A stretch of 64,000 bases of DNA from Candidatus Levyibacteriota bacterium (GTDB lineage: Bacteria; Patescibacteriota; Microgenomatia; Levybacterales; GWA1-39-11), in assembly GCA_036788695.1 (NCBI GenBank), contig DAIQMY010000001.1:150792-214791 (forward strand), read 5' to 3'. Shown piece after piece: positions 22,028 through 59,520 of this stretch; the first letter of the stretch is position 1, and every line of letters begins with the position of its first letter. The translations under genes and the position numbers were made by a program. Below the pieces are notes generated by a model, which saw only the letters and a program-made list of their open reading frames with translations, did no database searches and was not told the origin of the DNA.

Positions 22028-22037
22028 TAAAACACAT

Positions 22038-31018: not shown

Positions 31019-31078
31019 GGGAGTAATAATAATAACAATTTTTACCTATGCTTACAACCCGGGGAAGGAGGTTGTGGG

Positions 31079-31150: not shown

Positions 31151-31205
31151 AAAAACGAAACTGTGGTAAATTATAGCACGAGAAAGGTAAATATTCGATT
31201 CGTAA

Positions 31206-34496: not shown

Positions 34497-34519
34497 CATT
34501 ATTATAATTCTCTTCTTTT

Positions 34520-41498: not shown

Positions 41499-41960
41499 AT
41501 GTTAAATTTTTTGAAGATATCATTTCCTTATGCTGTAGCTCATGCCCACTGTGATATTCCCTGTGGAATATACGACCCAAACGGTGCCCAGTTAGCGGCG
41601 CATACTGTGCTTAGGATGACACAGTTACTATCTGAGAAAACTGAGACCCATGACGTAGCAAGAATTACTCATGTTAAAGAGGAACATGGTGAGGCAATTG
41701 AAGAAGAGTTGGGTACGCTTGAAAATGATTATTTTAAACCAGAACACTTTGAGCAATTTCCGGAATTAAAAGGTCTTCTTTCTGATTCAGTGAAGTTATC
41801 TATTGAAACCCGGCAGCACATAGATATTCAAAAAGCTGAAGAGCTACTTGAGAAAGTCTTACAAATTTCAGAGATATTTTATAAAACAAAGAATGTAACT
41901 CCAGTAAGGGTTTCTTCTGTTTATCCAACAAAAGGAGAGATTGTAGCCTATACCGCATGA
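41499..41960 (+). CDS. sodN: Nickel-containing superoxide dismutase precursor (NiSOD)
   Basis: Leader MLNFLKISFPYAVAHA followed by HCDIPCGIYDP, the Ni-hook (His1, Cys2, Cys6 of the mature protein). Confidence 0.85.
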   Translation: MLNFLKISFPYAVAHAHCDIPCGIYDPNGAQLAAHTVLRMTQLLSEKTETHDVARITHVKEEHGEAIEEELGTLENDYFKPEHFEQFPELKGLLSDSVKLSIETRQHIDIQKAEELLEKVLQISEIFYKTKNVTPVRVSSVYPTKGEIVAYTA

Positions 41961-42241
41961 TTCTAGGTATCTTCAAAATAACAGGTCACAGTATGGAGCC
42001 TACGATTAAAAATGGTGATAGTGTTCTTGCGGTGGGCATGTTTTCCATCAAAAAAGGGGATGTGATTGTATTCCAGAATGACTCTAAATATTTTGTAAAG
42101 CGGGTAGCCGCAATAATTGGGGATAAGGTGAAAGTTTTAGGAGATAACCCGGAAGATAGTTTTGACAGCCGTAATTTTGGAGAAATTGAAAAAGATGTTA
42201 TTATTGGGAAAGTAATAAAAAAATTTAAATGGTTTTTTTAA
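41957..42241 (+). CDS. sodX: NiSOD maturation peptidase SodX (S24/S26 signal-peptidase-like)
   Basis: GHSMEPTIKNGDSVL catalytic Ser motif. Overlaps the sodN stop (ATGA). Confidence 0.75.
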   Translation: MILGIFKITGHSMEPTIKNGDSVLAVGMFSIKKGDVIVFQNDSKYFVKRVAAIIGDKVKVLGDNPEDSFDSRNFGEIEKDVIIGKVIKKFKWFF

Positions 42242-46020: not shown

Positions 46021-46698
46021 ATGGAGAAAAAACGGATAATAGCGAATTGGAAATCATATAAGACAGCAGAGGAAACTGTGCTTTTTCTAGATTCGTTGAA
46101 AGCAGCTTGGGACGAATTACCATTGGAGAATAAGGAAATAATAATTCTCCCTTCCTATATGTCTCTTTCGACTGCGTACGTTTATAAAGAGACAGAGAGT
46201 TTACCTATTTTTATAGGGGCGCAAGATATTTCAACATATGATGAGGGGCCATATACCGGTGAGGTAAGCGGGAGGCAGATTTCGGAGTTTTGTCAATTTG
46301 TGCTTATTAACCACTCAGAAAGAAGAAGATACAATCATGAAGGAGACCAAGAGGCAAGAGCAAAAGTTCTTCAAACACTCAAATATAATTTAACACCCCT
46401 GTATTGTGTTCAGGATGAGAACGCTGCAGTACCTGATAATGTATTTGAAATTGTGTATGAGCCTCCTTCCGCAATTTCAACATTCCAGGAAGGAGCAAGA
46501 GTACAAGATGTAGCAGAAATAGAGCGGGTCTTTAGTGTTTTGGGTAAACGGTATCCGCAGGCAAAACTATATTATGGAGGAAGTGTTGATGCAGAGAGTA
46601 TTAAGAATCTAGTGCTTTTACCTCATATTGCAGGATTTTTGGTAGGAAGCGCAAGCTTAAGCCCTGAAAGTTTTGCAAAAATATTAATGGCATGGTAA
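46021..46698 (+). CDS. tpiA: Triosephosphate isomerase (divergent)
   Basis: ANWKSY, GAQD, YTGE, INHSERR, YEPPSAIST, YGGSV and GSASL correspond to the TIM signature blocks (NWK, GAQN, FTGE, GHSERR, YEPVWAIGTG, YGGSV, GGASL). Confidence 0.75.
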   Translation: MEKKRIIANWKSYKTAEETVLFLDSLKAAWDELPLENKEIIILPSYMSLSTAYVYKETESLPIFIGAQDISTYDEGPYTGEVSGRQISEFCQFVLINHSERRRYNHEGDQEARAKVLQTLKYNLTPLYCVQDENAAVPDNVFEIVYEPPSAISTFQEGARVQDVAEIERVFSVLGKRYPQAKLYYGGSVDAESIKNLVLLPHIAGFLVGSASLSPESFAKILMAW

Positions 46699-47834
46699 TA
46701 AATAAAAAAATAGCAATTGGTGTAGGCTTTGTTATTTTAATCATTTTTCTTTTGATTATACTCAAGACACTGCCCATATTTTGGGGAGTATTTATTGATA
46801 AAAAAATTAATGTTAAAAAAAGTGAAAATGGAAACATAAATATATTACTGCTAGGTATTGGAGGGGCAAAACATGATGGGCCAGATTTAACTGACACAAT
46901 TATTTTAGCAAGTATAAATCCTCAGAAAAATATTGTTCACCTGGTTTCAATACCCCGAGACTTATATGTGGATAGTCTACAAAGTAAGATAAATGCAGCA
47001 TATGCAAATGGACAGGAAAAAGGTGGGAAAGGTATATTGCTTGCACGTTCAACTGTTGCCTCAATAACCGGGATAAGGCCGGACTACGTATTTGTATTAG
47101 ATTTTTCTGGGTTTATAAAATTAGTGGATTTGATAGGGGGGATTGATGTGCCTGTTCAAAACACTTTGGATGATTATGCATACCCTGAAGAGGGGAAGGA
47201 GAACGAATTGTGTGGTGTAACAGATGATGGACTTGCTTCTTTTTCTGCGCAAATCGCAACGGGAAGTGCAACAGAATTTGATTTATTTCCTTGTAGATTT
47301 TTACATTTACATGTTCCTGCAGGGGTACAACATATGGATGGTGAGTTAGCATTAAAATTTGTACGCTCAAGGCATGCGCTTGGGCAAGAGGGGTCAGACT
47401 TTGCAAGAAGTAAGCGGCAGCAGTTAGTTATAAACGCAGTAAGAGACAAAATATTATCCCTTGGAACACTTGCGAATCCGGTTAAGTTGATAGGAATAGT
47501 TGGGATATTGGGAGACAATATACGTACGGACATACCAGAAGGGCAATTTGATGATTTTATAAAGCTCGCGCAAAAAATGAAAGGTGCAAAAATTGAAAGC
47601 ACGGTAATAGATGAAGGAGATCTGGGGCAAGAAAGATATGGGTTATTAATAAACCCTCCGCTTCAAGAATATAATGGTCAATGGGTTTTAGCTCCTAGAG
47701 CAGGGCGTGGTAACTATTCAGAAATAAAGACTTATCTTTCATGCGTCTTGAAGGGTGGGAAGTGCTTGATTACAAAAGATAGTGTTGAAATAGTGAAGGC
47801 ACCGCCTAGCGTGACTCCAAGTTCTCATAAGTAA
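46692..47834 (+). CDS. LytR-CpsA-Psr (LCP) family cell-wall glycopolymer transferase
   Basis: N-terminal TM, then NILLLGIGGAKHDGPDLTDTIILASINPQKNIVHLVSIPRDLYV (the LCP core motif). Confidence 0.8.
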   Translation: MVINKKIAIGVGFVILIIFLLIILKTLPIFWGVFIDKKINVKKSENGNINILLLGIGGAKHDGPDLTDTIILASINPQKNIVHLVSIPRDLYVDSLQSKINAAYANGQEKGGKGILLARSTVASITGIRPDYVFVLDFSGFIKLVDLIGGIDVPVQNTLDDYAYPEEGKENELCGVTDDGLASFSAQIATGSATEFDLFPCRFLHLHVPAGVQHMDGELALKFVRSRHALGQEGSDFARSKRQQLVINAVRDKILSLGTLANPVKLIGIVGILGDNIRTDIPEGQFDDFIKLAQKMKGAKIESTVIDEGDLGQERYGLLINPPLQEYNGQWVLAPRAGRGNYSEIKTYLSCVLKGGKCLITKDSVEIVKAPPSVTPSSHK

Positions 47835-50025
47835 TTTTAAAAATTGTAGTTTTCCCGTTTTTACTTTTAAAAATGCGTCGTCCAAGAAGATTAAAGTTAT
47901 TGATATTTAACCCCGAATATTTGCTTTTTTCAAGCTCTCCAACGATTACATATGAGATGTTATACTTTTTAATAATCTGCTTTGCTTCATCATATGTTCC
48001 CGCGTAAGCTTTTCGGATTTCTTCAATTCTTGGTGCGGGCACATCATATGTTCCGCGCCACAACCATTCATGTACTGTCCACCCTAAAATAGTTGGTAAT
48101 CCAGTGTTTGCTGATATTCTTGCAAAGTCCGTATAAGAATCTCCTTGAGCCTCTAGGATAACTGGCTGTCCGTAAACATTTTTTTGCAGAAAATCTATTG
48201 CTTCAAGATCTCCTGGGTATAAATTCACAAGATAGCTAGTTCCATCTAAGCCAGAATAGGTTTTAAAATCACCATAGTATGATTTTATAGCAAAGAATGG
48301 ATAGGTAAGAACAAGAGTAAGTAAGAAAAGGCTAGTAAGTAAGAAAAGTATTTTTAATAGTTTTCTTCGAATTGATATGAGAAGAAAAATGATTATATAG
48401 CCACTTGCTATCCCTAACATGATAAAGGACTGATAAACAAGTTTAAACATGGTATTTGCCCGGTAATGTTGAGGATAAATATCTTTAGCATATAGTATCT
48501 CAGGGAGGAGAATTAAGAGAGTTGATAGGAGAATGAGTATGAGAATAAATAGATTTCTACGCCCAGTTTCTTCAGAAAATGATAAATAGGAAAAATATTT
48601 CTTCCTGTTTTTAGTCTGTATGTTCACGTTTTTTGCAAAAAATAAAAATACAAAGAATACAAAAGCAAAGAAGTAGAAAAATCCATAAAGAATTAACAAC
48701 TGATAAAGTGGAGAGTGCTGGCAGTGGTCCGCCTCAAAAAGAAAGGGTCCAAGTTTTTGTAGATTGGGATAAATGTTAGATACACATAAAACTCCGATTC
48801 CTGAGACGAAAGGTTTGAAAAAGAGACTAAAAGGGATGGTAAAAACAGCATATAGCAATACAGTGATTCCTGCTTCTAATATAAATTTTTCAAAAGCCTG
48901 CTTTAATCCCAGAATTTTTTTAATTGGGAAATACCCTTTTGTTTTCTTAAGCGCTATTTTTACATGGGTAAGACTAAGAGCAAGAAATACAAAAAAGGTT
49001 AGTAGCATATAAATAATTCCATCCCATACATTTGTCATATACATAATGGCAAGCAGAAAAGATAAAAAAACAATTTGTGTTTTTAATAGTTTTTTTGAGT
49101 TAATGATTCCATACAGTAAGGCAATTATGGTAAGTACAAATGGGATATCTGCTACATGCCCATGAAGATCTGATACGACAAATGAATAAAGTGGGAATTC
49201 ATGGATGGTAAATGGAATAAATCTGGTCGCGTTTGGATACCAATAGCTATTTGGAAACAAGTGAGGAGTAAAAGATAAAAGCCATGGAGGCACAGGATTT
49301 TCACCTTTGTATGCTGTAAAAAATGCATAAAGTGTATGTAGGTTTCCTGAGAGTGATATGAGTGTTCCGCCTAATATTCCTCCTAGAACTGAAATCTTTT
49401 TGCCGTATTTATAAAACATACTGTAAAGAATTGAGAAACCCCCAGTGAATGTGAATGCGAAAAGCGTTGCTATCATAAGGTTATAGCTTATGTTTGAAGG
49501 AACTCCTGAAAGTCGTGTTAATACTGCTGCTGTTAAATGCCCAAAAAAGTAATAGTTTATGGAGAAGGGAGCAAGCCAGATATCTTTAGGCGGAAAGTAT
49601 GAGGAGCGAAGTATTGAATTAACAAATCCATAATCCATAAACTTCTCAAGCCCATGGATGCTTGGTTCGTGCGATCGTATATATGCCCAAATGATAATAC
49701 ACAGAAAGAAAAGCACTTCTTGAAGCATAATAATACCTGTATTCTTGAAAGAAAAAGAATAAAAATATTTTTTAAATAGTATAAAATTTATGATTCCTGA
49801 AGCAGTTATGAGAGCAAGGAGTGAATATAGGTGAAATGGTAATACGTGAAGCGTTCCTAGAAGAAGTGATCCGTAAGACAAGATACCAATTCCTACTATT
49901 TTAGAAAAAATATAATATCTGTTTTTTGTATCCTGGAATAAGTACTTCGTGAAGGGTAAAAAAATTATACCAATAATAAAAAGAGTTACCCACCACCTCA
50001 ATATAAAAATAAAATCATTTATCAT
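47806..50025 (-). CDS. Large polytopic membrane protein of the DUF2298/YYY-type (putative glycosyltransferase-associated), 739 aa
   Basis: More than 15 hydrophobic helices. A C-terminal soluble domain with LEAQGDSYTDFARISANTGLPTILGWTVHEWLWRG resembles the conserved C-terminal block of DUF2298 proteins. Confidence 0.45.
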   Translation of the reverse strand: MINDFIFILRWWVTLFIIGIIFLPFTKYLFQDTKNRYYIFSKIVGIGILSYGSLLLGTLHVLPFHLYSLLALITASGIINFILFKKYFYSFSFKNTGIIMLQEVLFFLCIIIWAYIRSHEPSIHGLEKFMDYGFVNSILRSSYFPPKDIWLAPFSINYYFFGHLTAAVLTRLSGVPSNISYNLMIATLFAFTFTGGFSILYSMFYKYGKKISVLGGILGGTLISLSGNLHTLYAFFTAYKGENPVPPWLLSFTPHLFPNSYWYPNATRFIPFTIHEFPLYSFVVSDLHGHVADIPFVLTIIALLYGIINSKKLLKTQIVFLSFLLAIMYMTNVWDGIIYMLLTFFVFLALSLTHVKIALKKTKGYFPIKKILGLKQAFEKFILEAGITVLLYAVFTIPFSLFFKPFVSGIGVLCVSNIYPNLQKLGPFLFEADHCQHSPLYQLLILYGFFYFFAFVFFVFLFFAKNVNIQTKNRKKYFSYLSFSEETGRRNLFILILILLSTLLILLPEILYAKDIYPQHYRANTMFKLVYQSFIMLGIASGYIIIFLLISIRRKLLKILFLLTSLFLLTLVLTYPFFAIKSYYGDFKTYSGLDGTSYLVNLYPGDLEAIDFLQKNVYGQPVILEAQGDSYTDFARISANTGLPTILGWTVHEWLWRGTYDVPAPRIEEIRKAYAGTYDEAKQIIKKYNISYVIVGELEKSKYSGLNINNFNLLGRRIFKSKNGKTTIFKITYENLESR

Positions 50026-50098
50026 TGAATTGAATTATTATACTATATTCTATGTGGATTGAGCGTTTTTCCCAGGAAAGATAGATCAAGTAAGTTTT

Positions 50099-51499
50099 TT
50101 ACCAATTTACCTGTGGAGATTTAAGGCAGGAAGATATATTTTCAAAACCAAATAATTGCATTGTTATTCTATCATTTTTAGGATCAGGGAAAAGTACTTT
50201 ACATTCAGAGAATGGTACAGGGGTGTCATTATCTTTATACCATTTTAGTCTCATTGTTCTACTTCTCGACGCGAAAAGAAATTGTATATTGTATGTAGCT
50301 CCATCATTCCCCGAAATTGTTTTCTCTGTGTTATATATCTTTTGCCCAAAGTACATGTGTGTTCCCCAAATATGCTTTCCTATGATATCAGTTGAAAAAA
50401 ATAAACCTACAATTAAAAACATAAAAAATATATATAAAAAAAATAGCTTTACATATTTGTTTTTTATAGTCCAAATTGCTGTCAGGGATAAAAATAGAAG
50501 AAAAGGGATAATGGGGAGTTCATATCGCGGAATTGTAAAAGTTTGAAATGTTAATATACAAAGAGTATATATTGCCGAAAATAAAAACATAAAAAGAAAG
50601 AGCCTTGAATTTTTACTTCCAGAAGTAATAAAAAGTTTGAAATTTTGTCTATTTTTCCCTACGATTAAATAACGAAATAGGAAAAAAAATGTGATTAGAA
50701 GTAGAACCCATAGAAAATTTAAAAATAAAACTTGAAGAGCGTGAGTTAGGAAAAAGAAATTGATAAATTTAAAGAATAATAGATTGTTTATTATAGTATA
50801 AAAGGAGCCGTGCTGGGCAGTTTCTGAAAATATATAATCTTTCCACGCACTTTTTCCGGATATATGCAAAAATAAAGACCATAAGAGATACGCACTAGCA
50901 GGTAAACCGTACGGAAAGAGAAAGGAAAGATTTTTTAGAAAAGTTTTTTTAATGGGGAAAGTATCTATTATAAAAAAGCTAAGAAGAGCAATAAGACCTG
51001 TTTCCTTTGTTAAAATAAGAAGCGTGAGAGAGAGTGAAAATAAAAACCGTTTCTTTGCCAAAAATAATGCGCAACAAAGTAGCAAAAAACATGTTAGTAG
51101 ATAATCTGTTAAGGCAAAAACTGCCGTTGAGATAAATAGTGGTTGGATTGAAAGAGCTACTGAGAAGAAAATTGCAAATGTTTTATCTATCATGCGCTTT
51201 CCAATATAATAAGCAGATATTATTCCTATAATTCCAGTTATATATCCGAGCAGACTATACGTAACACTATGAACACCTGCGATTTGGAAGATGAGAGCAG
51301 AAATGACCTCTTTTAGAGGAGGATGAATGGAGTTGAATTGAGAAAAGTAAAGCGGAAATCCTCCCTTTAAAAAATAATAAGATTTGACAAAGTCTATGTT
51401 ACCGTCACGTAAAGGAATAACAGTTACAAATGGAATTATTAAAATGGTAAATATAAATAGTGGGATGAGAATATATATATTTTTATATAATATTTTCAT
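50099..51499 (-). CDS. GT-C fold glycosyltransferase (family 39/83-like, ArnT/PMT type)
   Basis: Polytopic membrane protein with an LTKETGL-type loop motif and the overall GT-C topology. 4-nt overlap with the upstream gene. Confidence 0.5.
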   Translation of the reverse strand: MKILYKNIYILIPLFIFTILIIPFVTVIPLRDGNIDFVKSYYFLKGGFPLYFSQFNSIHPPLKEVISALIFQIAGVHSVTYSLLGYITGIIGIISAYYIGKRMIDKTFAIFFSVALSIQPLFISTAVFALTDYLLTCFLLLCCALFLAKKRFLFSLSLTLLILTKETGLIALLSFFIIDTFPIKKTFLKNLSFLFPYGLPASAYLLWSLFLHISGKSAWKDYIFSETAQHGSFYTIINNLLFFKFINFFFLTHALQVLFLNFLWVLLLITFFFLFRYLIVGKNRQNFKLFITSGSKNSRLFLFMFLFSAIYTLCILTFQTFTIPRYELPIIPFLLFLSLTAIWTIKNKYVKLFFLYIFFMFLIVGLFFSTDIIGKHIWGTHMYFGQKIYNTEKTISGNDGATYNIQFLFASRSRTMRLKWYKDNDTPVPFSECKVLFPDPKNDRITMQLFGFENISSCLKSPQVNW

Positions 51500-53139
51500 T
51501 TCGTTAGGATACCCATAATTTCTTGAGAAGAATAATGTTTTATATTTTTAAAAATAATAATTTTTGGATGGTCGTAGACCTGAAATGATTCCTCTGATGC
51601 ATCATCGTTTATTTCAAGCCCAAATAAAGAGGGATACGAGGAGAACTCCGCTACTTTTTTATATCCCAATTTTTCGGCAAAAAGATATTTATAATACTTA
51701 CTTGTTGTAGGATAACTTTCTGGTAAATGGATGAGTGAACCATGAAGTCGTCTTGTCGTAAGACTTATATAGTCAGCAGATGAGAGCATGGTGGCCAAAT
51801 ATTCTCCTTTGTTGCTAAATTCATTATCATAAATTGTAAGCTGTCTAGTGGTAAATGGAGTATCCTTTCCTGGAATATATATAGGGAGTCCGTCATCCCA
51901 GTGTTCTGTAAGCACTATTTCACCTGGCTTAATATTTTCTAACATCCAAAGTGAGGCAGTATATCTTGTCTGCGGTTTTGAGTAAATTGACATATATGAA
52001 ACTGCCCAGAGGACTGTAGCTAGTAAAAATATCCAAAGCATTATCTTCCCAATAAAATTATGTTTTTTTAAAAAAAATGAAAGAGTAAAGGCAGCATAAA
52101 GTGAGAAGAACGGCAAAAGAGGAGTCATATATCTTATAAATTTTGCGTGCCATGAAGCAGCATACAGAAAATAAATAACAGGGAATACGAGAATAAAAAG
52201 ATATGAAACCTGTTTTTTTTTAAAAGTAAAATAAAAGACAAGACCAAATCCTATAATTGATAGAGCAAAAACAGGTCCCATTTGCCAAAACAGATTATAT
52301 ATTTCATACAGATAAGAAATTGTTTTATCAAATTGATGGGTATATGGAACAATTATTCTTCCGGTTGCGACCCCGGTCTCATAATTCATCGATTGTAAAA
52401 ATTTGTGATAAGAAAAGAAAGTATATGGAGAAAAAAGAAAAAAAGTAACAAAGGTCAGTATGACAAAAAACACTAGTTTAAAAATAAAAGAAATAATTTT
52501 TTTCCCCCGACTTTGAAAATCTATTAGAAGAAAACTCAAAAAAGGAATCATCAGAAAAGATAATGCCGTAGTCTTGGCTGCGATCCCTAGTCCAGAAATA
52601 ATAGCGAGTGCGGCAAGCACGAGTGTTTTAGGTTTCTCATAATAACACAAGGAAAGATAGACAAGAAGCGTAATTGTCAAAATAAGAAAGCTTTCAGTGG
52701 TTGCAAAATGTGCTATCTGTATGGAAGAAACAGTAAATGCAAAAATAAAACTTGCAATAATTCCCGTTGTTTTATTGAATAGTTTTTTGCCAAGTAAAAA
52801 TAAAATCAAAATTGTGAGAGTTGAAAAAAATGCAGAAAAAGTTCTTCCAACTTGATTTATATGCCCCCATTCAGTAGTCCAAATGTTTGTTTGCTGTAGG
52901 GAGTTCATAATTTCCCCCGTACTTTTATAGAGATATACAGGCAAGCCCCCATAGGCAAAAAAGTCAGGGTCAAGTTGTGATACAAATTGAACCTTTGTAA
53001 CAGCGTTATCTATATTTCGTTCATCTGGGTGGAAAATTTGATAATTATCCCAATTTGTATTGTAGAAACGCATATATCCACCTATTAAAATAATGAATAC
53101 CACAAGAAGTAATTGAGAGTGTTTTTTAAAAATATTCAT
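51496..53139 (-). CDS. GT-C fold glycosyltransferase (family 39-like, PMT_2 type)
   Basis: First extracytoplasmic loop HPDERN (DE catalytic motif of GT-C enzymes) after TM1. At least 11 TM helices. Confidence 0.55.
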   Translation of the reverse strand: MNIFKKHSQLLLVVFIILIGGYMRFYNTNWDNYQIFHPDERNIDNAVTKVQFVSQLDPDFFAYGGLPVYLYKSTGEIMNSLQQTNIWTTEWGHINQVGRTFSAFFSTLTILILFLLGKKLFNKTTGIIASFIFAFTVSSIQIAHFATTESFLILTITLLVYLSLCYYEKPKTLVLAALAIISGLGIAAKTTALSFLMIPFLSFLLIDFQSRGKKIISFIFKLVFFVILTFVTFFLFSPYTFFSYHKFLQSMNYETGVATGRIIVPYTHQFDKTISYLYEIYNLFWQMGPVFALSIIGFGLVFYFTFKKKQVSYLFILVFPVIYFLYAASWHAKFIRYMTPLLPFFSLYAAFTLSFFLKKHNFIGKIMLWIFLLATVLWAVSYMSIYSKPQTRYTASLWMLENIKPGEIVLTEHWDDGLPIYIPGKDTPFTTRQLTIYDNEFSNKGEYLATMLSSADYISLTTRRLHGSLIHLPESYPTTSKYYKYLFAEKLGYKKVAEFSSYPSLFGLEINDDASEESFQVYDHPKIIIFKNIKHYSSQEIMGILTK

Positions 53140-54416
53140 GAGGAAGATGCGATGTCAGCAATTTTTTGACCTAACTCAACTGCATAATTTGTTCCCCTAT
53201 CCCATGGGTATACCTGTTCAATATTTGCAAGATACACCTTTTTAAAAGGCGTATAGAATGAAGGTATAAATCTGGAATAGTTTGGTGGAATAATAGGCTG
53301 CGCAAAAGGTGCACGAAAAACTTTAAAGGAAATAATATCTTTGTAATACTCTGGATTAATTTTTTTGAGCCATGGGTCATATAACTTTAATAATTTATTC
53401 TCATCCAGGGTAAATCTTGGGTCTGATGTTTCCATGTAGTTTCCGACATATAGTAAATGTTCATTATTATAGTGTTTTTTATCCATAAAATTAGTATGTT
53501 CAACTATAGCAAGTATAGGTGACTTGAGGTCACACATAGAAAGCCAATATGTTCCGTTTGAGAAGAATGGTTTTTTAAGTCGTAACACCAGATTCATAGC
53601 CGCGATGCCCTTGAGTTTTCCGAGTGAATCTTTGTAATCTTCAGGAAGTTGATTGGCAATTTTTTTAAATAAAAATGAAGGAGTTGTGACAATAACTGAG
53701 TCAAATTTTTTTACATACTCTTTTCCACGAGTTACGTATTTTATTGTAACATTATCATCTGATGAGAGATGAGTTACTTCTGTTTTAAAATAAAATGTAC
53801 CTCCCTTTTTTTCTATAACATCTTGTAGATGGGTTGCAAATTCTAAAAAACCTCCTTCAGGGTACGCAAGATTTGAAGTTCTTTTATAAATTCTTGCCCA
53901 AAACCAGGATAATGAAACTTGCCTTGAATATTTTCCTAATTTGTTCACCATTAACGGTTCCCATAATTTCTTATAAGCATTTTCTCCCATACTTTTCATA
54001 AGATAAGGTTCTGCTTTAAATTTTTCGAGAGGTTTCCATAGTGGGTTATATCTAAGTAATGCAAGAGATATTCCCATCCGAAAACGATCAATAATATTTA
54101 ATTTTGGAAATTTTAAAACTGAAAGTGGGGAATCAAGTTGATATATATCATCCTCTACGAAAGAGCAGGTAATTGGACGTTTAACAAGAACTTTGTGGCC
54201 TATCTCGTGTGCCAGGGCTAAAACGCTTTTATCGTTTGTGAACCAGTGGTGATAGTGATATTCAAGTGACCAGTCCCACCCTTTTTCTTTATAGCCAATT
54301 GCAAGCCCGCCAGGCTTAGTATCTAACTCAAAAATGGTAACGGTATGCCCTTTTTTTGTTAAATAATAGGCAGCAGATAATCCTGTGAATCCAGAGCCAA
54401 CAATTGCAATATTCAT
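53136..54416 (-). CDS. FAD/NAD(P)-dependent oxidoreductase (amine-oxidase/PPOX-like Rossmann fold)
   Basis: N-terminal IAIVGSGFTGLSAAYYL...TIFE...GG dinucleotide-binding motif. Confidence 0.6.
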   Translation of the reverse strand: MNIAIVGSGFTGLSAAYYLTKKGHTVTIFELDTKPGGLAIGYKEKGWDWSLEYHYHHWFTNDKSVLALAHEIGHKVLVKRPITCSFVEDDIYQLDSPLSVLKFPKLNIIDRFRMGISLALLRYNPLWKPLEKFKAEPYLMKSMGENAYKKLWEPLMVNKLGKYSRQVSLSWFWARIYKRTSNLAYPEGGFLEFATHLQDVIEKKGGTFYFKTEVTHLSSDDNVTIKYVTRGKEYVKKFDSVIVTTPSFLFKKIANQLPEDYKDSLGKLKGIAAMNLVLRLKKPFFSNGTYWLSMCDLKSPILAIVEHTNFMDKKHYNNEHLLYVGNYMETSDPRFTLDENKLLKLYDPWLKKINPEYYKDIISFKVFRAPFAQPIIPPNYSRFIPSFYTPFKKVYLANIEQVYPWDRGTNYAVELGQKIADIASSS

Positions 54417-54438
54417 AAATAAATTTGAGAAAAAGCCT

Positions 54439-55809
54439 TTATAGTATAAGCAACAATATAGATCCTGACACTATAAAAAGAATTGAGATGGATGTCAAGA
54501 AAATGCTTTGACTGACGCTTCCCGTTGGTGGCAGGGGCGGAGGAGAAGTAGGTGTTATTGCAGTTGCTGTCGGGATAGGGGTCTGTGTAGGGGCTAGGGT
54601 TGGGGTAGAGGACGATGTAGGAGTAGGAGTCGTTGTAAGGTTAATAGTAGGAAGGGCCGTGACGGTTGGTGTGGGTGCTAGTACTTGGGTAGGGGTAGGC
54701 TTTGCGGATGGTGTCGCGTCTTCAGCAATTTGTGAGCCAGATGCAAGAATTGTGAAGGAGCTTGCGACAGTTTTTGTTGCGCCGTTTGCGTCAGCAGCTT
54801 GTAGCTTTATTGTATATGCCCCTTGTGTCAGTGAAACAGCAGGTCTATACGCCCAGTTTCCATTTGGATCAGTTCTTACTTGTACATTTATTAAATCAGG
54901 TTCTGTAGATAGTGCTATAAGCGAATTTGGGAATGCAGTACCTTTGAATTGAGGCTTCTCATCAGTATATGTTTGACCATTTCTAGGTGAAATAATTAGA
55001 ATTTGTGCAGTTTTTTTACCAGTAGGGATTGCAAGAAGGCTTGATTGTGAGCTGAGGTTTTCCTCATCAGTACTAGCAATAAATGAATAGTTGCTAGATA
55101 AGGTAATCGTGGGTATCTCTGTGGATGGGGAATATGTGTATAGTATGTCAGATGTAAGATCCCCTTTTTTTGCGGAGAGGGAAATATGTGTATTAGGCAC
55201 GAGTGTTAGTATTTGGTCATGAGAAGTATTTCGTATAAGGTATGTTGGTATAGAATATTTTCCTTCAGAATTTGTAACAGCAGATATTGGGGCAGCATTC
55301 GGTATTTTAATATCTAATAAAACATCATTTGCGTTTTCGCCATTAGGTAAAATAACTTTTCCTGAAAGTGCATACGTGTTTCCTGAAGAAGGAGCATCTC
55401 CGTCAGCAGTTGTCGTGGTATAGAAGGTTCCATTATCCGTATACTCGTCCCCATTTGACAGGAGTGTGAATTTATATTGTGTATTTGGTTTCAGATTTGT
55501 AACTGTTATGAAATGGTTTATATATGATTGATTTCCCTGAGCGTCTCTGACATCAAATACAACAGAAGGAGAATCCGGATTATTGATTTGTACTGCTGAT
55601 AAGGTGGGGTCAAGCGTTGTAAAAGTTACAGTAAATGAACTATTTGTGATGTTTGATATGGACACGTTTTGTGGTTTTTCGTTAGGAGTTGCTTGGCTTG
55701 ATTTGAACACTCCAATTTGTACTAAAAATGCAGTTACAAAAAGTCCAGAAATAAGTATTATGAATGCAAAAACTGTAGGAATTCTTTTCTGGAATAAGTT
55801 TTTTTTCAT
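54439..55809 (-). CDS. Cell-surface protein with FN3/Ig-like domains, a Pro/Thr-rich stalk and a C-terminal LPPTG motif followed by a hydrophobic segment
   Basis: Signal peptide. FTVTFTTLDPT and other beta-sandwich-like segments. A long PT-repeat. C-terminal PPLPPTGSVSQSIFLTSISILFIVSGSILLLIL. Confidence 0.5.
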   Translation of the reverse strand: MKKNLFQKRIPTVFAFIILISGLFVTAFLVQIGVFKSSQATPNEKPQNVSISNITNSSFTVTFTTLDPTLSAVQINNPDSPSVVFDVRDAQGNQSYINHFITVTNLKPNTQYKFTLLSNGDEYTDNGTFYTTTTADGDAPSSGNTYALSGKVILPNGENANDVLLDIKIPNAAPISAVTNSEGKYSIPTYLIRNTSHDQILTLVPNTHISLSAKKGDLTSDILYTYSPSTEIPTITLSSNYSFIASTDEENLSSQSSLLAIPTGKKTAQILIISPRNGQTYTDEKPQFKGTAFPNSLIALSTEPDLINVQVRTDPNGNWAYRPAVSLTQGAYTIKLQAADANGATKTVASSFTILASGSQIAEDATPSAKPTPTQVLAPTPTVTALPTINLTTTPTPTSSSTPTLAPTQTPIPTATAITPTSPPPLPPTGSVSQSIFLTSISILFIVSGSILLLIL

Positions 55810-55814
55810 ACTAG

Positions 55815-56153
55815 TTATATTTCCGGGATAGATATCTCATTCGGGTTGTCTATGCTTGTTGTAGGAGTAGGTAATAGTATTGATTGTGATTGAGTTGGCG
55901 TTGGTAAAGGTGGGGTAGGCGTAGGTGACGCGCTTTGTGTGGCAATATTTTGACCCAAATCCACCGGTATCTGAAGTCGTGATCTGAGGTCTTCAATTGT
56001 CTGATTATTAAAATTTGGTGAAATAGGAATAATTTGCTCAGTTACATTACTGTTAATCGTTGACGCGTTGAAAATGTTATAGATAGTCAATGATATCCAC
56101 ACGAGAACTACAAACGTTGTAAATACTGCAAGGTATGCTAAATTTTTTAACAT
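55815..56153 (-). CDS. Membrane-anchored Pro/Thr-rich small protein (112 aa), hypothetical
   Basis: N-terminal TM helix followed by a PTPTPPLPTPTQ low-complexity region. Confidence 0.35.
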   Translation of the reverse strand: MLKNLAYLAVFTTFVVLVWISLTIYNIFNASTINSNVTEQIIPISPNFNNQTIEDLRSRLQIPVDLGQNIATQSASPTPTPPLPTPTQSQSILLPTPTTSIDNPNEISIPEI

Positions 56154-56165
56154 AGATATATTTGT

Positions 56166-56771
56166 TTATTCTTTTGCAAAGTACGCTTTGCCTGAAAACG
56201 ATAGTTCTAATTGTCCTTTGTCTGTTTTTCCAGTTGTAATTTTTTGAATACTAATTATTCTTTGGAAATTCGTTACGTTTTCAATAAACGTATTAACATT
56301 TTGTTCGCTTCCTGTTACATCAACTGTTATTGCATATCCGTATAACTTCCCACCTGCTTCAAGTGGATAATATTGAAGGGGAGACACGGTTAGCGACCCA
56401 AGTTCAACCTGATTTCTAGATGCCAATGTTTCAATTTGTCGAGTTAGTGTTGGAATATCTGGTATTACTGGAATTGCATTATATATTAATGGCAAATCCG
56501 GCTTGATTTGTGAATACTCAGCATCAAGACTCTGAAGTGCTGCAAGTTTTTTCTGCAAAGCAACATAAACATTCTTATTGTCCTCAAGTTTTTTTTGTAG
56601 ATTAGTAATAGTAGAAATAGCAGGTCGGAGAATAAAAAACCCAAAGAAAGATACTGAAAAAAGAGTGAACACTATGTATAAATAAGCGCCTGTTTCCTTT
56701 CTGGTTTTGACGCGTAAAAATTCCTGACGTAGCCAATATACTGGTTGTTTCTTTTTTTGTTCCGTGTTCAT
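56166..56771 (-). CDS. PilO-like type IV pilus assembly protein candidate
   Basis: Short cytoplasmic N-terminus, one TM, a coiled-coil segment (LQKKLEDNKNVYVALQKKLAALQSL) and a C-terminal alpha/beta domain. 4-nt overlap with the upstream PilN-like gene. Confidence 0.45.
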   Translation of the reverse strand: MNTEQKKKQPVYWLRQEFLRVKTRKETGAYLYIVFTLFSVSFFGFFILRPAISTITNLQKKLEDNKNVYVALQKKLAALQSLDAEYSQIKPDLPLIYNAIPVIPDIPTLTRQIETLASRNQVELGSLTVSPLQYYPLEAGGKLYGYAITVDVTGSEQNVNTFIENVTNFQRIISIQKITTGKTDKGQLELSFSGKAYFAKE

Positions 56772-57322
56772 AGTGAAATATCTGTTTGTTGTAAAGTAGT
56801 AACGAGTTTAAATCTAATCCCTTGATCAAGGCTCGTTAGTTCCTCGATAGATATGGAAACAACAGATGGATTTTTCTTTAACTTATCAATAAGTGTATTA
56901 AGCGTAAATATGGAGTAAGTCTGACCATCAATTGCAATACTGGTATCAGAAACATTTAAATTGCTTGTTAAAAATTCAGAGGTATTAAGATAGCTTACTA
57001 ATTCGCTTAGAAAAACCACTTTTTTTTGAGTATCGTTCTCAATTGTTTTAATTGTAGATAGCCTATTCTGAAGATTTCTATATTTTTTTTCGTTTACTGC
57101 TTGGGCTTCGATAAAAATTTGAGATTTTCGTATTTGGTCATTAAGGTCAACTATCTGTCGGTCAATAATAAATCTATAGCCTAGTGCGGCAAGCGTTAAA
57201 AGTTCAACCCCCACAATAATTACTCTCCCAGTATTTATTGTCCACTTGATGAATAGGCTAGAAGTTGATTCTGTATCTTTTCTGCCAAGGTTAATAGATA
57301 GGCGCTGTGCGTCATTTTGCAT
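56768..57322 (-). CDS. PilN-like type IV pilus assembly protein candidate
   Basis: N-terminal RLSINLGRK (like the PilN INLLP motif), one TM (VIIVGVELLTLAALGYRFII) and a periplasmic coiled coil. Confidence 0.45.
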   Translation of the reverse strand: MQNDAQRLSINLGRKDTESTSSLFIKWTINTGRVIIVGVELLTLAALGYRFIIDRQIVDLNDQIRKSQIFIEAQAVNEKKYRNLQNRLSTIKTIENDTQKKVVFLSELVSYLNTSEFLTSNLNVSDTSIAIDGQTYSIFTLNTLIDKLKKNPSVVSISIEELTSLDQGIRFKLVTTLQQTDISL

Positions 57323-57384
57323 GATTTAAGTGTAATGCGTTTTCGTGTGTTTGTCAAAGAAAAAAAGATGGGGTTTTGGTAAAA

Positions 57385-57705
57385 TTACTTACTTTTTTTT
57401 GAGGGTGCTTTTTTAACTGCGGGTTTTGCTTTCTTTGCTACAGATACTTTTTTTGCCTTTATATCTGCCCCTACAGCTTTTTTCGTAACGAGTGCTGACT
57501 TAATTCTTGATCCTTTATTTTTGTGAATCAAATGTTTTTTAACAGCCTTATCGATTACTGAGAAGGCACTGGAGATATCTTTATCGCTTTTAGATTTCTT
57601 CGCGGCTCGAACAACTGTTTCAAGCTTATTGCGGAAGAGTTCATTTTCAATAGCGACCTTTTTATCTCTTCGTAGTTTTTTTATTGCTGATTTAATAACT
57701 GGCAT
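57385..57705 (-). CDS. rpsT: 30S ribosomal protein S20 with a Lys/Ala-rich C-terminal extension
   Basis: MPVIKSAIKKLRRDKKVAIEN...KHLIHKNKGSRIKSAL matches S20. The probable start is the ATG at 57705 (the track ORF begins at a TTG at 57753). Confidence 0.8.
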   Translation of the reverse strand: MPVIKSAIKKLRRDKKVAIENELFRNKLETVVRAAKKSKSDKDISSAFSVIDKAVKKHLIHKNKGSRIKSALVTKKAVGADIKAKKVSVAKKAKPAVKKAPSKKSK

Positions 57706-57876: not shown

Positions 57877-59520
57877 ATGAAAGAAATCTTCCAAAAAAGC
57901 ATAAATGCGCTTATTTCAAAACAAACAAACATTTTTTCCGCTGCTCTTTTTATTATTCTAACTACAGTAATATCTCAGTTATTAGGACTTTTTAAATATA
58001 GAATACTCGTTTCCTTATTTGGTGCATCAACAGAGCTTGGTGTTTTTTTCGCAGCCTTTAGAGTACCAGATTTTATTTTTCAGGTTGCTATAGCGGGTGC
58101 ATTATCAACGGCATTTATACCAGTATTTACTGAATATGTGGTACATGGAAAGAGAAGGGAAGCAGATTCTTTTACTTCATCACTTCTTACCATTGGTGTA
58201 ATTTTTTATGTTCTGGTAAGTATTATTGTTATTTTATTCTCTTATCAACTCGCGGAGTTAGTTGCTCCAGGTTTTTCCCCTCATGAGCTGAGATTGATGG
58301 CCCAGTTTATGATTATTATTCAACTTGCTCAAATGTTTTTTATTTTGGGTACAGTTGCAACAGCCGTCCTTCAGTCTTTGCAGCATTTTTTGATTCCTGG
58401 GATAGCAACAGCCGCATATAACTTGGGAATAATTTTAGGGCTTGTTGTTTTTGTCCCCTTTATAGGTTTCTATTCGGCAACTGTAGGTGTAGTTATAGGT
58501 TCTGTTTTATTTTTTATTGTGCAGCTTCCTCTTCTTATCCATTCAGGGTTTGTATATAAACCAACTATAGATTTAAAGAACGGTACGTTAAAAGTCATTC
58601 ATCTTATGGTTCCCAGATCAGCTACATTGATTGTAACGCAGCTTGCGATAACTGGTAACGTTTTTTTTGCGTCTTTTTTAGGGGCAAGAAGTTTAGTTGT
58701 TTTTGACCTAGCTCAAACGCTTGTTATGGCACCGGTGTTATTATTCGGTCAGTCTATCGCACAAGCATCATTCCCTGCTTTATCTCAGAAAAAAAATGAT
58801 AAAAAAACATTTGATTCAATTTTTATCTCCTCATTTAATCAGATATTATATTTAACGCTTCCATTGTCTGTATTATTTATTGTTTTAAGAATTCCACTCA
58901 TTCGACTTTTTTTTGGTGCTTCTCGATTTGACTGGACTGCTACAGTAGACACAGGAAGAACTCTTGCGTATTTTTCCGTATCTATCGCAGCTCAATCTCT
59001 GATATATCTATTGGCTAGGGGATTTTATGCTCATAAAGACACGAAAACTCCCTTTTTTGTGACTATTTTTGCAGTCTGTATAAATATCAGCATTTCATAC
59101 GTTTTTGTTCTTATTTATCACCTTCCCATATTTTTTCTTGCGCTAGCGTTCTCGATCTCAAATATACTTGCCTGCATTATCCTTTTTTTACTTTTAGACA
59201 AAAAAATACATTTACCAAAAAGAAGTATTATCATAACAAGCACAAAAATTCTTTTTGCAACCTTAATTATGGGAATTGCCTTGTATATTCCCATAAAATT
59301 GCTTGATCAGTTGGTTTTTGATACCACAAAAACAATAAATCTGATTCTTTTAACGGGTATTGCGTCTTCTGCCGGGTTAATTACATATATACTCTTTACA
59401 TGGCTGTTTAATATCCAAGAAGCAAGGTATGTGGTAGAAGTCGTAAAGAAATTTAAAAATGGGAAAAAATTATTACAAGACATGGGGGAATTAATAAACG
59501 GTCCAAAGCCTACGTTGTAG
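57877..59520 (+). CDS. murJ: Lipid II flippase MurJ (MviN family)
   Basis: More than 12 TM helices. N-terminal region LGASTELGVFFAAFRVPDFIFQVAIAGALSTAFIPVFTEY is characteristic of MurJ. Confidence 0.8.
   Translation: MKEIFQKSINALISKQTNIFSAALFIILTTVISQLLGLFKYRILVSLFGASTELGVFFAAFRVPDFIFQVAIAGALSTAFIPVFTEYVVHGKRREADSFTSSLLTIGVIFYVLVSIIVILFSYQLAELVAPGFSPHELRLMAQFMIIIQLAQMFFILGTVATAVLQSLQHFLIPGIATAAYNLGIILGLVVFVPFIGFYSATVGVVIGSVLFFIVQLPLLIHSGFVYKPTIDLKNGTLKVIHLMVPRSATLIVTQLAITGNVFFASFLGARSLVVFDLAQTLVMAPVLLFGQSIAQASFPALSQKKNDKKTFDSIFISSFNQILYLTLPLSVLFIVLRIPLIRLFFGASRFDWTATVDTGRTLAYFSVSIAAQSLIYLLARGFYAHKDTKTPFFVTIFAVCINISISYVFVLIYHLPIFFLALAFSISNILACIILFLLLDKKIHLPKRSIIITSTKILFATLIMGIALYIPIKLLDQLVFDTTKTINLILLTGIASSAGLITYILFTWLFNIQEARYVVEVVKKFKNGKKLLQDMGELINGPKPTL

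Follow-up and report, generated by a model that had tools for sequence, protein, structure and literature searches.

A pilN-pilO cassette beside a variable, putatively separable glycosylation island in a conserved envelope gene block of Microgenomates

We consider it moderately probable that the pilN/pilO-like and glycosyltransferase genes lying side by side in the 64-kb window (the whole stretch of DNA analysed, from a Levybacteria genome of the CPR) form a mosaic of separable units, a pilNO cassette and a glycosylation island, set in a conserved envelope synteny block of Microgenomates. As defined here, the cassette comprises pilN, pilO and the genes for a small bitopic protein and an LPPTG-bearing (Big13) surface protein (57322..54439), and the island the genes for an FAD oxidoreductase, GT-Cs and DUF2298 (54416..47806). 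An earlier note on this DNA had suggested that pilN/pilO and glycosylation may make up one pathway. The occurrence of the cassette without the island, and of the DUF2298-lcp pair without the cassette, together with variable island content, indicates that these are two separable modules and not a single dedicated pathway.

The layout described in that note stood. All eight co-oriented open reading frames are present on the minus strand, their identities are essentially correct according to Pfam and NCBIfam, and they do run "almost without gaps", as neighbouring genes overlap or lie at most 73 nt apart (-4, 12, 5, 22, -4, -4 and 73 nt in order from pilN to the DUF2298 gene). The LCP-family glycopolymer transferase gene (46692..47834, plus strand; Pfam/NCBIfam) is indeed convergent, its 3' end overlapping that of the DUF2298 gene by 29 nt, and forms half of a conserved lcp-tpiA synteny anchor. 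At the opposite end, rpsT, encoding ribosomal protein S20 (57385..57705, minus strand), is a conserved neighbour upstream of pilN, with murJ (57877..59520, plus strand) divergent beyond it. These genes belong to a cell-envelope synteny block conserved in Microgenomates (murJ, rpsT ... lcp-tpiA-uvrD-femAB). The wider synteny (groES/EL, lepA, murJ, lcp, tpiA) is likewise kept in these genomes, making gene-order conservation weaker functional evidence than usual.

Both PilN and PilO truly belong to the families of the type IV pilus alignment subcomplex. The pilN-like gene (56768..57322, minus strand) encodes 184 amino acids, in which a single TM segment is accompanied by a coiled coil and an alpha/beta domain. 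Taken as a single protein it scores 20.7 bits against Pfam PilN, slightly below the 22.8 cut-off; PF05137 is matched by 20 of 22 PilN orthologues (best E 6.8e-12), and the family profile matches M. xanthus PilN 3jc8_Na (E 5e-5). PilO (201 amino acids; 56166..56771, minus strand; 4-nt overlap with pilN) reaches 44.9 bits in Pfam against a cut-off of 22, and the best Foldseek matches of its AF2 model (pLDDT 85) are PilO structures 3jc8_Oa, 2rjz and 5uvr. In canonical systems the INL(LP)-type N-terminus of PilN binds PilM. The cytoplasmic N-terminus of the window protein carries a SINL motif (encoded at 57298..57287) whose I10 hardly varies; MPAININLLPQ is the start of the Gottesmanbacteria orthologue L032, and in the window's clade only INL remains of the motif, with G next. 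Retention of this PilM-binding-type motif points to an ordinary PilN role.

Compared with the PilM-PilN-PilO(-PilP-PilQ) subcomplex of type IVa pili (M. xanthus 3jc8; P. aeruginosa PilO 2rjz, 5uvr), the pair is alike in family by sequence and fold, in gene order, pilO following pilN with a stop/start overlap, in the INL(LP) N-terminus of PilN, and in the bitopic build of both proteins (TM segment, coiled coil and ferredoxin-like domain). It differs in having no upstream pilM and no pilP/pilQ, in having as downstream partners a bitopic protein (60-residue core) and an Ig-like protein that carries a sortase-type wall anchor, and in its setting, an envelope block of housekeeping genes apart from ATPases and pilins. 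The earlier observation that no pilM or ATPase is adjacent was borne out over the whole 64-kb window and some 10 kb around 18 Pfam-annotated places. Neither the window nor the places with Pfam calls showed pilM, pilB, pilC, pilT or pilD; pilM and a pilin motif were absent from every fetched locus, an ATPase was absent wherever Pfam calls existed, and a prepilin motif was found neither in the window nor among 117 loci. What ties the pair to pili is therefore only its family membership together with the PilM-binding-type motif. The type IV pilus loci described in CPR and in Gram-positive bacteria are similar in belonging to single-membrane organisms with PilN and PilO and no secretin. In those loci, however, the machinery genes co-localise, as do pilM1N1O1 and pilB/pilC/pilT in Nanosynbacter TM7x (PMC12206443, PMC6744442), whereas here pilN-pilO stand apart from other type IV pilus genes (63 loci; ATPase only where Pfam calls existed).

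The small bitopic membrane protein (112 amino acids; 55815..56153, minus strand) has a single TM segment, carries a PT-rich tail and matches nothing in Pfam or PDB. Its conserved core comprises the TM segment and the motif P(I/L)xPxF(D/N)xxxIxxLxxR (56027..55977); the tail (55937..55818) is lineage-specific, a correction to the earlier description of the protein. Pfam and sequence features identify the next product (456 amino acids; 54439..55809, minus strand) as a secreted Big13 surface protein carrying an anchor signal of sortase type, in which a signal peptide (predicted cleavage after SSQA40) is followed by fn3, Big_13, a PT linker of 63 amino acids (54723..54535; 65% P/T/S), LPPTG (residues 426-430, encoded at 54534..54520) and a C-terminal TM segment. 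Both PT-rich proteins had been placed near the GT-C genes, and they lie directly upstream of them. The S/T/P-rich tail of the small protein occurs only in island-bearing loci or lineages, and the Big13 linker is longer in island-bearing loci (mean 60 versus 42 windows); PT/PS linkers are also present in island-less Big13 orthologues, and the correlation of tail and island is confounded by phylogeny, the island-bearing and island-less loci differing in lineage. What stands of the claim that these proteins are "obvious substrates" is the tracking of the island by the tails; with lineage as a confounder, the Ser/Thr/Pro-rich tails of these neighbours are plausible candidate glycan acceptors.

The order PilN-PilO-small protein-Big13 was found in all 63 loci with PilO, at PilO identities from 90 down to 25% and with overlaps or tiny gaps, an arrangement far beyond chance. 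The cassette is common to Levybacteria, Gottesmanbacteria and other Microgenomates, while the island is inserted between the surface-protein gene and lcp-tpiA in part of the lineage only. Where present (50 loci), the island is conserved in order and variable in content, with zero to four GT-Cs and with or without the FAD oxidoreductase, a 13-TM protein (X620) and SDR and HAD-like genes; in a 98.7%-identical strain, GT-C #2 is swapped for an unrelated 13-TM gene (slot ~51534..50019). Seven scored loci (L025, L026, L027, L029, L032, L033 and L034) have the cassette without GT-C or DUF2298 genes, and the island is also absent after Big13 in the Gottesmanbacteria-type loci L115, L117 and L119. Big13 in island-less loci abuts lcp/tpiA or other surface-protein genes, and such loci argue against obligate coupling of the cassette and glycosylation. 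Two further loci (L047 and L057) retain DUF2298-lcp-tpiA with housekeeping genes upstream and the cassette not nearby. In 83 of 99 loci a convergent lcp comes after the DUF2298 gene; lcp-tpiA is equally conserved in island-less L033, L117 and L119, so that adjacency to lcp may be plain synteny.

Each module is preceded by its own promoter-like element. That of the pilN unit (TTGACA-17-TACACT; 57329..57357, minus strand) ends 6 nt before the pilN ATG, so that the transcript probably has no leader or only a very short one, and every Levybacteria-type locus (L006-L024) has TTGACA-17-TA(C/A)ACT at a constant position ahead of pilN. The second element (TTGACA-17-TATAGT; 54470..54498, minus strand) lies inside the surface-protein gene, within the final codons for its TM segment, and the ATG of the FAD-oxidoreductase gene follows ~50 nt downstream. 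Across 11 orthologues its codons are Leu TTG in 11 (background 13%), Thr ACA in 10 and Ile ATA in 11, and the codons between these vary, suggesting that the island is probably driven by its own promoter inside coding sequence. No terminator-like site was found at the gene junctions, including the cassette/island boundary, and read-through co-transcription of the two co-oriented modules is likely.

The island begins with a gene for a cytoplasmic FAD-dependent oxidoreductase of Amino_oxidase type (426 amino acids; 53136..54416, minus strand; NCBIfam PRK07233, 385 bits); its stop and the start of GT-C #1 share 4 nt (ATGA), and in L016 it is fused in frame to the GT-C. GT-C #1 (547 amino acids, ~10 TM segments; 51496..53139, minus strand) matches PMT_2 with 46 bits and PMT with 30 bits and bears an invariant loop-1 motif, H37-P-D-E40 (53031..53020). 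The report of two GT-C enzymes holds insofar as both match PMT_2; GT-C #2 (466 amino acids; 50099..51499, minus strand; PMT_2 28 bits) is divergent, swappable and without HPDE. Calling them GT39-like was over-specific: the PMT_4TMC domain is absent from both, neither has a sequence match to solved PMT structures, and the two belong, as far as their sequences tell, to the PMT_2 superfamily, with GT39 not demonstrable. With actinobacterial Pmt and eukaryotic PMT1/2 they share the PMT/PMT_2 match of GT-C #1 and, in that enzyme's first outer loop, an acidic D-E pair, as well as Pro/Thr-rich secreted proteins as plausible acceptors; they differ in the features just listed and in the company of several paralogues, DUF2298 and a flavoenzyme. 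The last gene (47806..50025, minus strand) encodes a 13-TM membrane protein of 739 amino acids with a full-length match to DUF2298/TIGR03662 (chlor_Arch_YYY; 466 bits), a likeness to the DUF2298 and PMT_2-type modules of Chloroflexi and Archaea such as the DUF2298-PMT_2-Rossmann-PMT_2 neighbourhood of Chloroflexi bacterium 44-23 (PMC8756737), although both GT-Cs here fall below the TIGR03663 cut-off (16 bits).

The earlier note held that coupling of pilus genes to O-glycosylation was undescribed, which overlooks TfpW, an arabinofuranosyltransferase of GT-C type whose gene lies in a Pseudomonas pilus locus and which acts on pilin (bioRxiv 10.1101/2020.04.19.049825; PMC11194591). Shared features are a GT-C beside type IV pilus genes, a lipid-linked donor with redox/epimerase help and modification of extracytoplasmic Ser/Thr. 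TfpW, however, adjoins a pilin gene, whereas here the neighbours are pilN/pilO with no pilin nearby, PT-rich proteins other than pilin are the candidate acceptors, and the flavoenzyme is of amine-oxidase/CrtI type and not a DprE1 homologue. GtrABC, PPPRS-MATE-GT136 (PMC11127046) and mycobacterial DprE1/DprE2 with Emb/Aft likewise combine GT-Cs at the membrane's outer face with cytoplasmic redox/epimerase enzymes acting on the donor, and gene gain and loss in them leads to strain-level glycan diversity; elaborate Gram-positive three-component versions feature multiple GT-Cs along with FAD oxidoreductases and NAD(P) epimerases (PMC11194591). Unlike the island, these systems lack DUF2298, and the island contains neither a donor synthase (GT2 or UbiA type) nor a dedicated flippase.

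Under the favoured mosaic of separable units, the four genes of the cassette would form an ancient operon transcribed from a promoter of their own. PilN would dock a PilM encoded elsewhere, and the co-translated bitopic protein (60-residue core) and the Sec-exported, LPPTG-anchored Ig-like PT-stalk protein would extend the PilN/PilO complex into the wall, in a single-membrane cell a possible functional analogue of PilP/PilQ or archaeal FlaF/FlaG. The island would be a lineage-specific, hypervariable extracytoplasmic glycosylation unit (FAD oxidoreductase, 1-4 GT-Cs, DUF2298 and sometimes an SDR epimerase and a HAD-like protein), transcribed at least partly from the promoter embedded in the surface-protein gene end. 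Its cytoplasmic flavoenzyme, apparently translationally coupled to the first GT-C and in one case fused, may modify a polyprenyl-phosphate-linked sugar or its lipid; the GT-Cs would transfer the sugar at the membrane's outer face, and swapping of island genes may yield strain-specific surface glycans. The Ser/Thr/Pro-rich stalk of the LPPTG protein and the small-protein tail are tentatively the likeliest acceptors, and a wall glycopolymer handled by the adjacent LCP is nearly as likely. PilN/PilO would then be neighbours of the glycosylation genes and not parts of a glycosylation machine, and the two sets may share a substrate protein.

It is unlikely that all eight genes constitute one pathway, in which PilN/PilO would serve as a scaffold when a glycoprotein layer or a decorated pilus is exported or assembled, and GT39-like enzymes would O-mannosylate both PT-rich proteins. 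The tight, co-oriented spacing with no terminator-like site at junctions, the order kept in 50 loci, PT-rich proteins immediately upstream of the GT-Cs with S/T/P tails only where the island is present, and the PMT/PMT_2 match of GT-C #1 fit this reading. It is contradicted by the seven scored loci and three Gottesmanbacteria-type loci with the cassette alone, by DUF2298-lcp without the cassette, by island content that is not fixed even among near-identical strains, and by separate conserved promoters; GT39 membership is not demonstrated, and the motif in PilN suits its ordinary role. PilM is itself an FtsA-like protein, and PilN/PilO might form a PilM-independent envelope complex, for example docking FtsA or MreB via the PilN N-terminus and acting with the small and Ig-like proteins in wall growth or division. 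The cassette always lies among murJ, lcp, femAB and rpsT, apart from the pilus genes looked for in the fetched loci and at Pfam-annotated places, in contrast to the co-localised components of other CPR (PMC6744442, PMC12206443). We nevertheless judge such a complex improbable as well, with bona fide pilus PilN/PilO as the closest sequence and structure matches, an INLLP-type motif that is a PilM-binding signature, PilM, PilB and PilC generally encoded by CPR, and no positive evidence for FtsA interaction.

Possible, if doubtful, is that the GT-C/DUF2298 island builds or decorates a wall glycopolymer or lipoglycan that is ligated to peptidoglycan by LCP, in an arabinan- or GtrABC-like manner unrelated to the PT-rich proteins, its position beside pilNO reflecting insertion into a permissive spot of the envelope-gene block. 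The conservation of lcp-tpiA in island-less loci weakens the argument from the frequent DUF2298-lcp pairing, a pair kept even when the cassette is elsewhere, and the island is devoid of genes for making a polymer (initiating transferase, polymerase, ABC or Wzx exporter). The co-occurrence of S/T/P-rich tails with the island also counts against a polymer acceptor, while PT/PS linkers occurring without the island count for one. The same block holds murJ and femAB, and the combination of GT-C paralogues with an SDR epimerase, a HAD-like protein and a flavoenzyme resembles polysaccharide-modifying systems (PMC11127046, PMC11194591).

The eight genes proposed in the earlier note were confirmed in that arrangement, all on the minus strand, and were given Pfam and NCBIfam identities. 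In the direction of transcription they encode a 184-aa PilN-like protein (57322..56768), a 201-aa PilO (56771..56166), a 112-aa single-TM protein with a PT-rich tail and no family match (56153..55815), a 456-aa surface protein, here called Big13 (55809..54439), an Amino_oxidase-type flavoenzyme (54416..53136), two GT-C membrane proteins, GT-C #1 (53139..51496) and GT-C #2 (51499..50099), and a DUF2298 protein (50025..47806). The successive junctions measure -4, 12, 5, 22, -4, -4 and 73 nt, and the 3' end of the DUF2298 gene is overlapped by 29 nt by a convergent plus-strand LCP transferase gene (46692..47834; LytR_cpsA_psr 117.8 bits, cut-off 24.6; TIGR00350 93.8 bits). On the 5' side of pilN lie rpsT and then a divergent, bona fide murJ. 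The best-supported reading of the locus is a mosaic of two parts, a cassette running from pilN to Big13 and an island formed by the flavoenzyme, GT-C and DUF2298 genes.

PilO matches PF04350 with 44.9 bits (cut-off 22) over profile positions 2-141 of 145, and its family profile finds the M. xanthus (3jc8_Oa, 6e-7) and P. aeruginosa (2rjz, 0.009) proteins among PDB sequences. An AF2 model built from a 99-sequence alignment (pLDDT 85) consists of a TM helix, a long coiled coil and a ferredoxin-like domain, with PilO structures as its best Foldseek matches (3jc8_Oa, 2rjz and 5uvr). The PilN-like protein scores just under the PF05137 cut-off (20.7 against 22.8 bits); this model is matched by 20 of 22 PilN orthologues (best E 6.8e-12), and the PilN family profile finds M. 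xanthus PilN (3jc8_Na, 5e-5). In canonical systems, the INLLP peptide of PilN is the binding site for PilM. The cytoplasmic N-termini of the PilN proteins studied here carry a near-invariant Ile inside I-N/D/E-L/F, in the form ININLLPQ in a Gottesmanbacteria locus (L032), VNINL in the related loci L027, L033 and L115, KIEFLPQE in L025 and L026, and SINLGRK in the window. Judged by this resemblance, the I-N-L peptide appears to correspond to the canonical PilM-binding site.

We collected 119 related loci by an exact-sequence look-up, two profile searches with neighbourhood look-ups and two scans, one of species-representative genomes with the PilO profile and one of metagenomes anchored on DUF2298, and annotated all of them with HMMs made from the genes of the window locus. 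The order PilN-PilO-small protein-Big13 is kept in all 63 PilO-containing loci wherever sequence is available, at PilO identities from 90% down to 25%, the genes overlapping or lying at most ~50 nt apart. The carriers are Levybacteria, Gottesmanbacteria and other Microgenomates, and the exact PilO protein of the window also occurs on ENA ERZ794922 NODE_17. The window belongs to Candidatus Levybacteria, the name that NCBI also gives to close homologues. Many records (L014, L015, L017, L018 and others) are titled ‘uncultured Gammaproteobacteria bacterium’ despite clearly Microgenomates gene content and synteny, evidently a placeholder or mislabel of these MAGs. In L115 the gap between pilO and the surface-protein gene (~10601-10790) contains an intact, conserved ORF for a 62-aa small protein that the source annotation left uncalled, and L119 has the same uncalled gap (10613-10795).

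No pilM, secretion ATPase or other pilus machinery gene was found in the 64-kb window. At the related loci having Pfam calls there is no pilB, pilC or pilin gene within ~10 kb and no secretion ATPase, pilM is found in no related locus, and a motif search of the window and 117 loci (~1.7 Mb) returned no prepilin motif. The gene directly upstream of pilN is rpsT, not pilM, in all loci. In this respect the cassette is unlike the CPR pilus loci of the literature, in which the components co-localise (PMC6744442; PMC12206443); the supplement of PMC12206443 consists of a genome list without per-gene hits for Levybacteria, and essentially no literature on Levybacteria pili was found. The small protein and Big13 were considered as possible pilins and rejected, as both lack a class III signal and the cleavage site of Big13 is of the SPase I type. 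A link between pilN-pilO and the type IV secretion genes of the window was rejected as well, the two not being syntenic in other loci.

Big13 begins with a Sec signal, whose cleavage site S-[RQ]-A is conserved, and continues with Ig-like domains (fn3 and Big_13), a linker rich in Pro, Thr and Ser (63 residues, 65% P/T/S in the window) and a P-x-[TSAG]-G sorting signal. The window protein has LPPTG at residues 426-430 and a 26-residue hydrophobic end without a charged tail, and many orthologues have a basic tail (ending ...LLTRG.../...KKK); a search of the 64-kb window turned up no sortase gene. In the small protein, ~60 residues form a conserved core made up of the TM segment and the motif P(I/L)xPxFDxxxIxxLxxR, and the profile of this protein returned only noise from the PDB.

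The island does not share the constancy of the cassette. The seven loci scored as island-less (L025, L026, L027, L029, L032, L033 and L034) have no flavoenzyme, GT-C or DUF2298 gene after Big13, and neither do L115, L117 and L119. Big13 is followed there by convergent lcp-tpiA (L033, L117 and L119), by tpiA (L115) or by other surface proteins without a Pfam match (L025, L026, L029 and L032). The genes that follow the surface-protein gene in the last group (L025 12243-14635, L026 10857-12596, L029 11642-13792 and L032 12191-14725) are of two kinds, bitopic proteins with Cys-rich ectodomains and small Pro/Ser-rich proteins ending in [LV]PxAG and a TM segment, an ending that suggests a second kind of C-terminal sorting signal. 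The flanking genes murJ, rpsT, lcp, tpiA, uvrD/pcrA and femAB are common to the island-less genomes and the window, which marks the island as inserted into a conserved block of envelope genes. The neighbouring murJ was considered as a flippase for the island and discarded, being a TIGR01695 equivalog (256 bits, cut-off 235) that is conserved where there is no island.

Among the 50 loci with an island, content varies: the flavoenzyme is sometimes missing, GT-C genes number from 0 to 4, and some loci have X620, a 13-TM family without a Pfam match, or an SDR epimerase and a HAD-like protein. DUF2298 stands alone after Big13 in L101 and L104, and L047 and L057 retain DUF2298-lcp-tpiA, preceded by housekeeping genes, but lack a cassette in the surrounding 10 kb. 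L002 is 98.7% identical to the window in DNA over 12.5 kb, and in it an unrelated X620-family gene for a 617-aa, 13-TM protein (L002 15238-17181) replaces exactly GT-C #2 (window ~51534..50019). Given this variation and the swap in L002, the island behaves as a surface-glycan diversity locus and not as a fixed pathway, and it offers a natural experiment in surface-glycan diversification in which cassettes are exchanged between near-identical strains. The metagenome scan anchored on DUF2298 stayed within the same clade (46-53% identity) and reached neither Chloroflexi nor Archaea. The description of TIGR03662 points to a DUF2298 module outside CPR. Such a module is noted in the appendix of one paper (PMC8756737).

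GT-C #1 is clearly paralogous (hhalign probability 100%) to the commoner ‘GT-C #2’ family that other loci carry. Both have H-P-D-E as an invariant motif of the first outer loop, and this motif holds a loop-1 Asp-Glu pair; the window's own GT-C #2 is divergent, lacks HPDE and matches PMT_2 only (28 bits). The PMT_2 score of GT-C #1 (46 bits) exceeds its PMT (PF02366) score (29.9 bits), and both models also recognise lipid-directed GT-Cs, ArnT among them. Neither enzyme matches PMT_4TMC (PF16192) at E <= 0.1 or, by phmmer, any PDB sequence at E <= 1; the best PDB match of the GT-C profile was STT3 at a non-significant E of 0.045, and NCBIfam matches fall far below their cut-offs. A single-sequence AF2 model of GT-C #1 was unusable (pLDDT 44.5), and essentially no literature on CPR mannosyltransferases was found. 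With no PMT_4TMC domain, no sequence match to solved PMT structures and sub-cut-off NCBIfam matches, both proteins can only be called PMT_2-superfamily GT-C enzymes, and ‘GT39-like’ is not established. The lipid-directed alternative, an ArnT-type (GT83) role, is unlikely: there are no arn genes in the window, and CPR bacteria are regarded as single-membrane organisms without LPS (PMC6744442) and without lipid A.

The DUF2298 protein is an above-threshold member of TIGR03662 (466 bits over residues 5-730, cut-off 300; Pfam DUF2298 319 bits). It has no detectable homology to GT-C #1 (hhalign probability 2.4%), neither phmmer nor its profile found a significant match among PDB sequences, and no literature on DUF2298 was found. 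The flavoenzyme (NCBIfam PRK07233, 385 bits) lacks a signal peptide, and its stop overlaps the start of GT-C #1. In L016 (12479-15403) a flavoenzyme and a GT-C are joined in frame into 974 residues with full-length matches to both families, reflecting either a true gene fusion or an assembly error of one base where the two genes overlap at ATGA. [quoted passage not shown]

Several GT-Cs with an FAD oxidoreductase and an NAD(P) epimerase have been noted in the elaborate Gram-positive three-component pentofuranose systems (PMC11194591; PMC11127046). However, GtrABC and PPPRS-MATE-GT-C systems unite a GT-C, a lipid-linked-donor synthase and a dedicated flippase in one locus, whereas the island has the GT-C part only, no GT2/UbiA-type synthase or GtrA/MATE flippase being found among island genes with Pfam calls or scans. 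Similarly, in DprE1/DprE2-type epimerisation of polyprenyl-P-pentose an FAD_binding_4 flavoenzyme (DprE1) is paired with an SDR reductase, whereas the island flavoenzyme is of the Amino_oxidase/PRK07233 type and the SDR epimerase occurs only in some related loci and is absent from the window. The resemblance is therefore functional and does not amount to membership of these systems.

A generic promoter and terminator scan performed at chance (46 sites found against 47.5 expected) and placed no terminator-like site at gene junctions; only two promoter-like sites were retained, on the strength of their conservation across loci. The element TTGACA-17-TACACT (57329-57357, minus strand) ends 6 nt before the pilN ATG and retains its position and geometry in all Levybacteria-type loci, indicating that pilN heads its own transcription unit, with an mRNA that is probably leaderless or has a very short leader. 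Co-transcription with rpsT as the only source of pilN expression was rejected in view of this conserved promoter between the two genes. The other site, TTGACA-17-TATAGT (54498..54470, minus strand), is near-consensus sigma-70-type and lies inside the codons of the Big13 C-terminal TM segment, ~50 nt before the flavoenzyme ATG; it is also present in L016 (12284-12312) and L017 (3298-3326). Among the 11 orthologues that have the peptide, TTG encodes Leu in 11/11 (background 13%), ACA encodes Thr in 10/11 (34%) and ATA encodes Ile in 11/11 (34%); TTG and ATA are rare codons, fixed here while the intervening codons vary freely. Fixation amid free variation suggests selection on the DNA and points to a putative internal promoter that would serve the island within this sub-clade. 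Transcripts started at the cassette are still likely to read through into the island.

Which molecules the island enzymes might modify is addressed by two sets of observations. The P/T/S linker is present in all Big13 orthologues and is longer where there is an island (mean 60 against 42 qualifying windows), and the small-protein tail is S/T/P-rich only in island-bearing loci, being absent or acidic in island-less ones. This contrast would fit glycosylation of the two proteins, but it is confounded by phylogeny, since island-bearing and island-less loci may not be independent lineages. DUF2298 is encoded beside lcp in 83 of 99 loci, and this near-constant association makes a wall glycopolymer a serious alternative acceptor. 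The earlier note had suggested that the eight genes may represent a dedicated surface-layer or pilus-decoration pathway coupling pilN/pilO to protein O-glycosylation by GT39-like enzymes, and this interpretation is partly supported. The PT-rich neighbours are plausible substrates. PilN and PilO are not components of a glycosylation pathway, and a GT39 assignment of the enzymes is not supported; nor is a coupling of pilus genes to O-glycosylation undescribed, since the GT-C enzyme TfpW is a known precedent for GT-C glycosylation linked to pilus genes (bioRxiv 10.1101/2020.04.19.049825).

Under the mosaic reading, the cassette would be an ancient pilN-pilO-small protein-LPPTG operon that probably encodes the membrane-to-wall part of a type IV pilus machine; PilM and the pilus motor would be encoded elsewhere. 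The adjacent part would be a GT-C/DUF2298 glycosylation island, hypervariable and transcribed from a promoter of its own, whose products probably decorate exposed Ser/Thr/Pro-rich stalks or a wall polymer. For attachment to host cells, CPR bacteria rely on type IV pili and on surface structures, and we know of no account of how the pilus machine crosses the CPR wall; the pilM-less PilN-PilO operon with an Ig-like and a small membrane protein offers a concrete candidate for the part of the machine that spans the wall. Two aspects seem to be new: a pilM-less PilN/PilO pair that is constantly accompanied by a small bitopic protein and an Ig-like protein anchored to the wall in Levybacteria, Gottesmanbacteria and other Microgenomates, and a cassette-swapping island made of uncharacterised families. 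The latter puts DUF2298, the PRK07233 flavoenzyme and the 13-TM family in a testable context beside candidate acceptors. If the separation of the two modules is right, annotating the locus as a ‘pilus glycosylation pathway’ would be misleading. More speculatively, and in our estimate improbably, Microgenomates PilN and PilO, uncoupled from PilM and the pilus genes, might form with the tiny bitopic protein and the sortase-anchored Ig-like stalk protein an undescribed membrane-wall complex. It could serve either as the missing component by which the CPR pilus crosses the wall or, independently of PilM, in the envelope or in division, and in Levybacteria its exposed PT stalk would be the dedicated target of the island, so that a conserved machine would bear glycan coats that differ between strains.

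Several other features of the window deserve mention. Gram-positive-type type IV secretion/conjugation genes occupy 2436-17977 and 31206-33638, and include a VirB4/TraG P-loop ATPase (2436-4424), a PrgI-like protein with a CarboxypepD_reg domain (5087-6154), three small VirB2/TrbC-like membrane proteins (8700-9913), a VirD4-like coupling ATPase (31206-33638) and, lying among these, several large proteins without a Pfam match (6743-8680, 13004-16195 and 16208-17977). ARAGORN predicted a tRNA-Ile with anticodon TAT (31075-31151) and a tRNA-Ser with anticodon ACT (34412-34497), both anticodons unusual for bacteria. NrdR, a ribonucleotide reductase (large-subunit barrel and TSCPD domain) and a cobalamin adenosyltransferase are grouped at 18924-22586, which fits a B12-dependent reductase. 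A 733-aa protein with Kelch repeats and a peptidase C39-like domain is encoded at 38351-40552, and a nickel superoxide dismutase gene is directly followed by that of its S26-type maturation peptidase (41499-42241).
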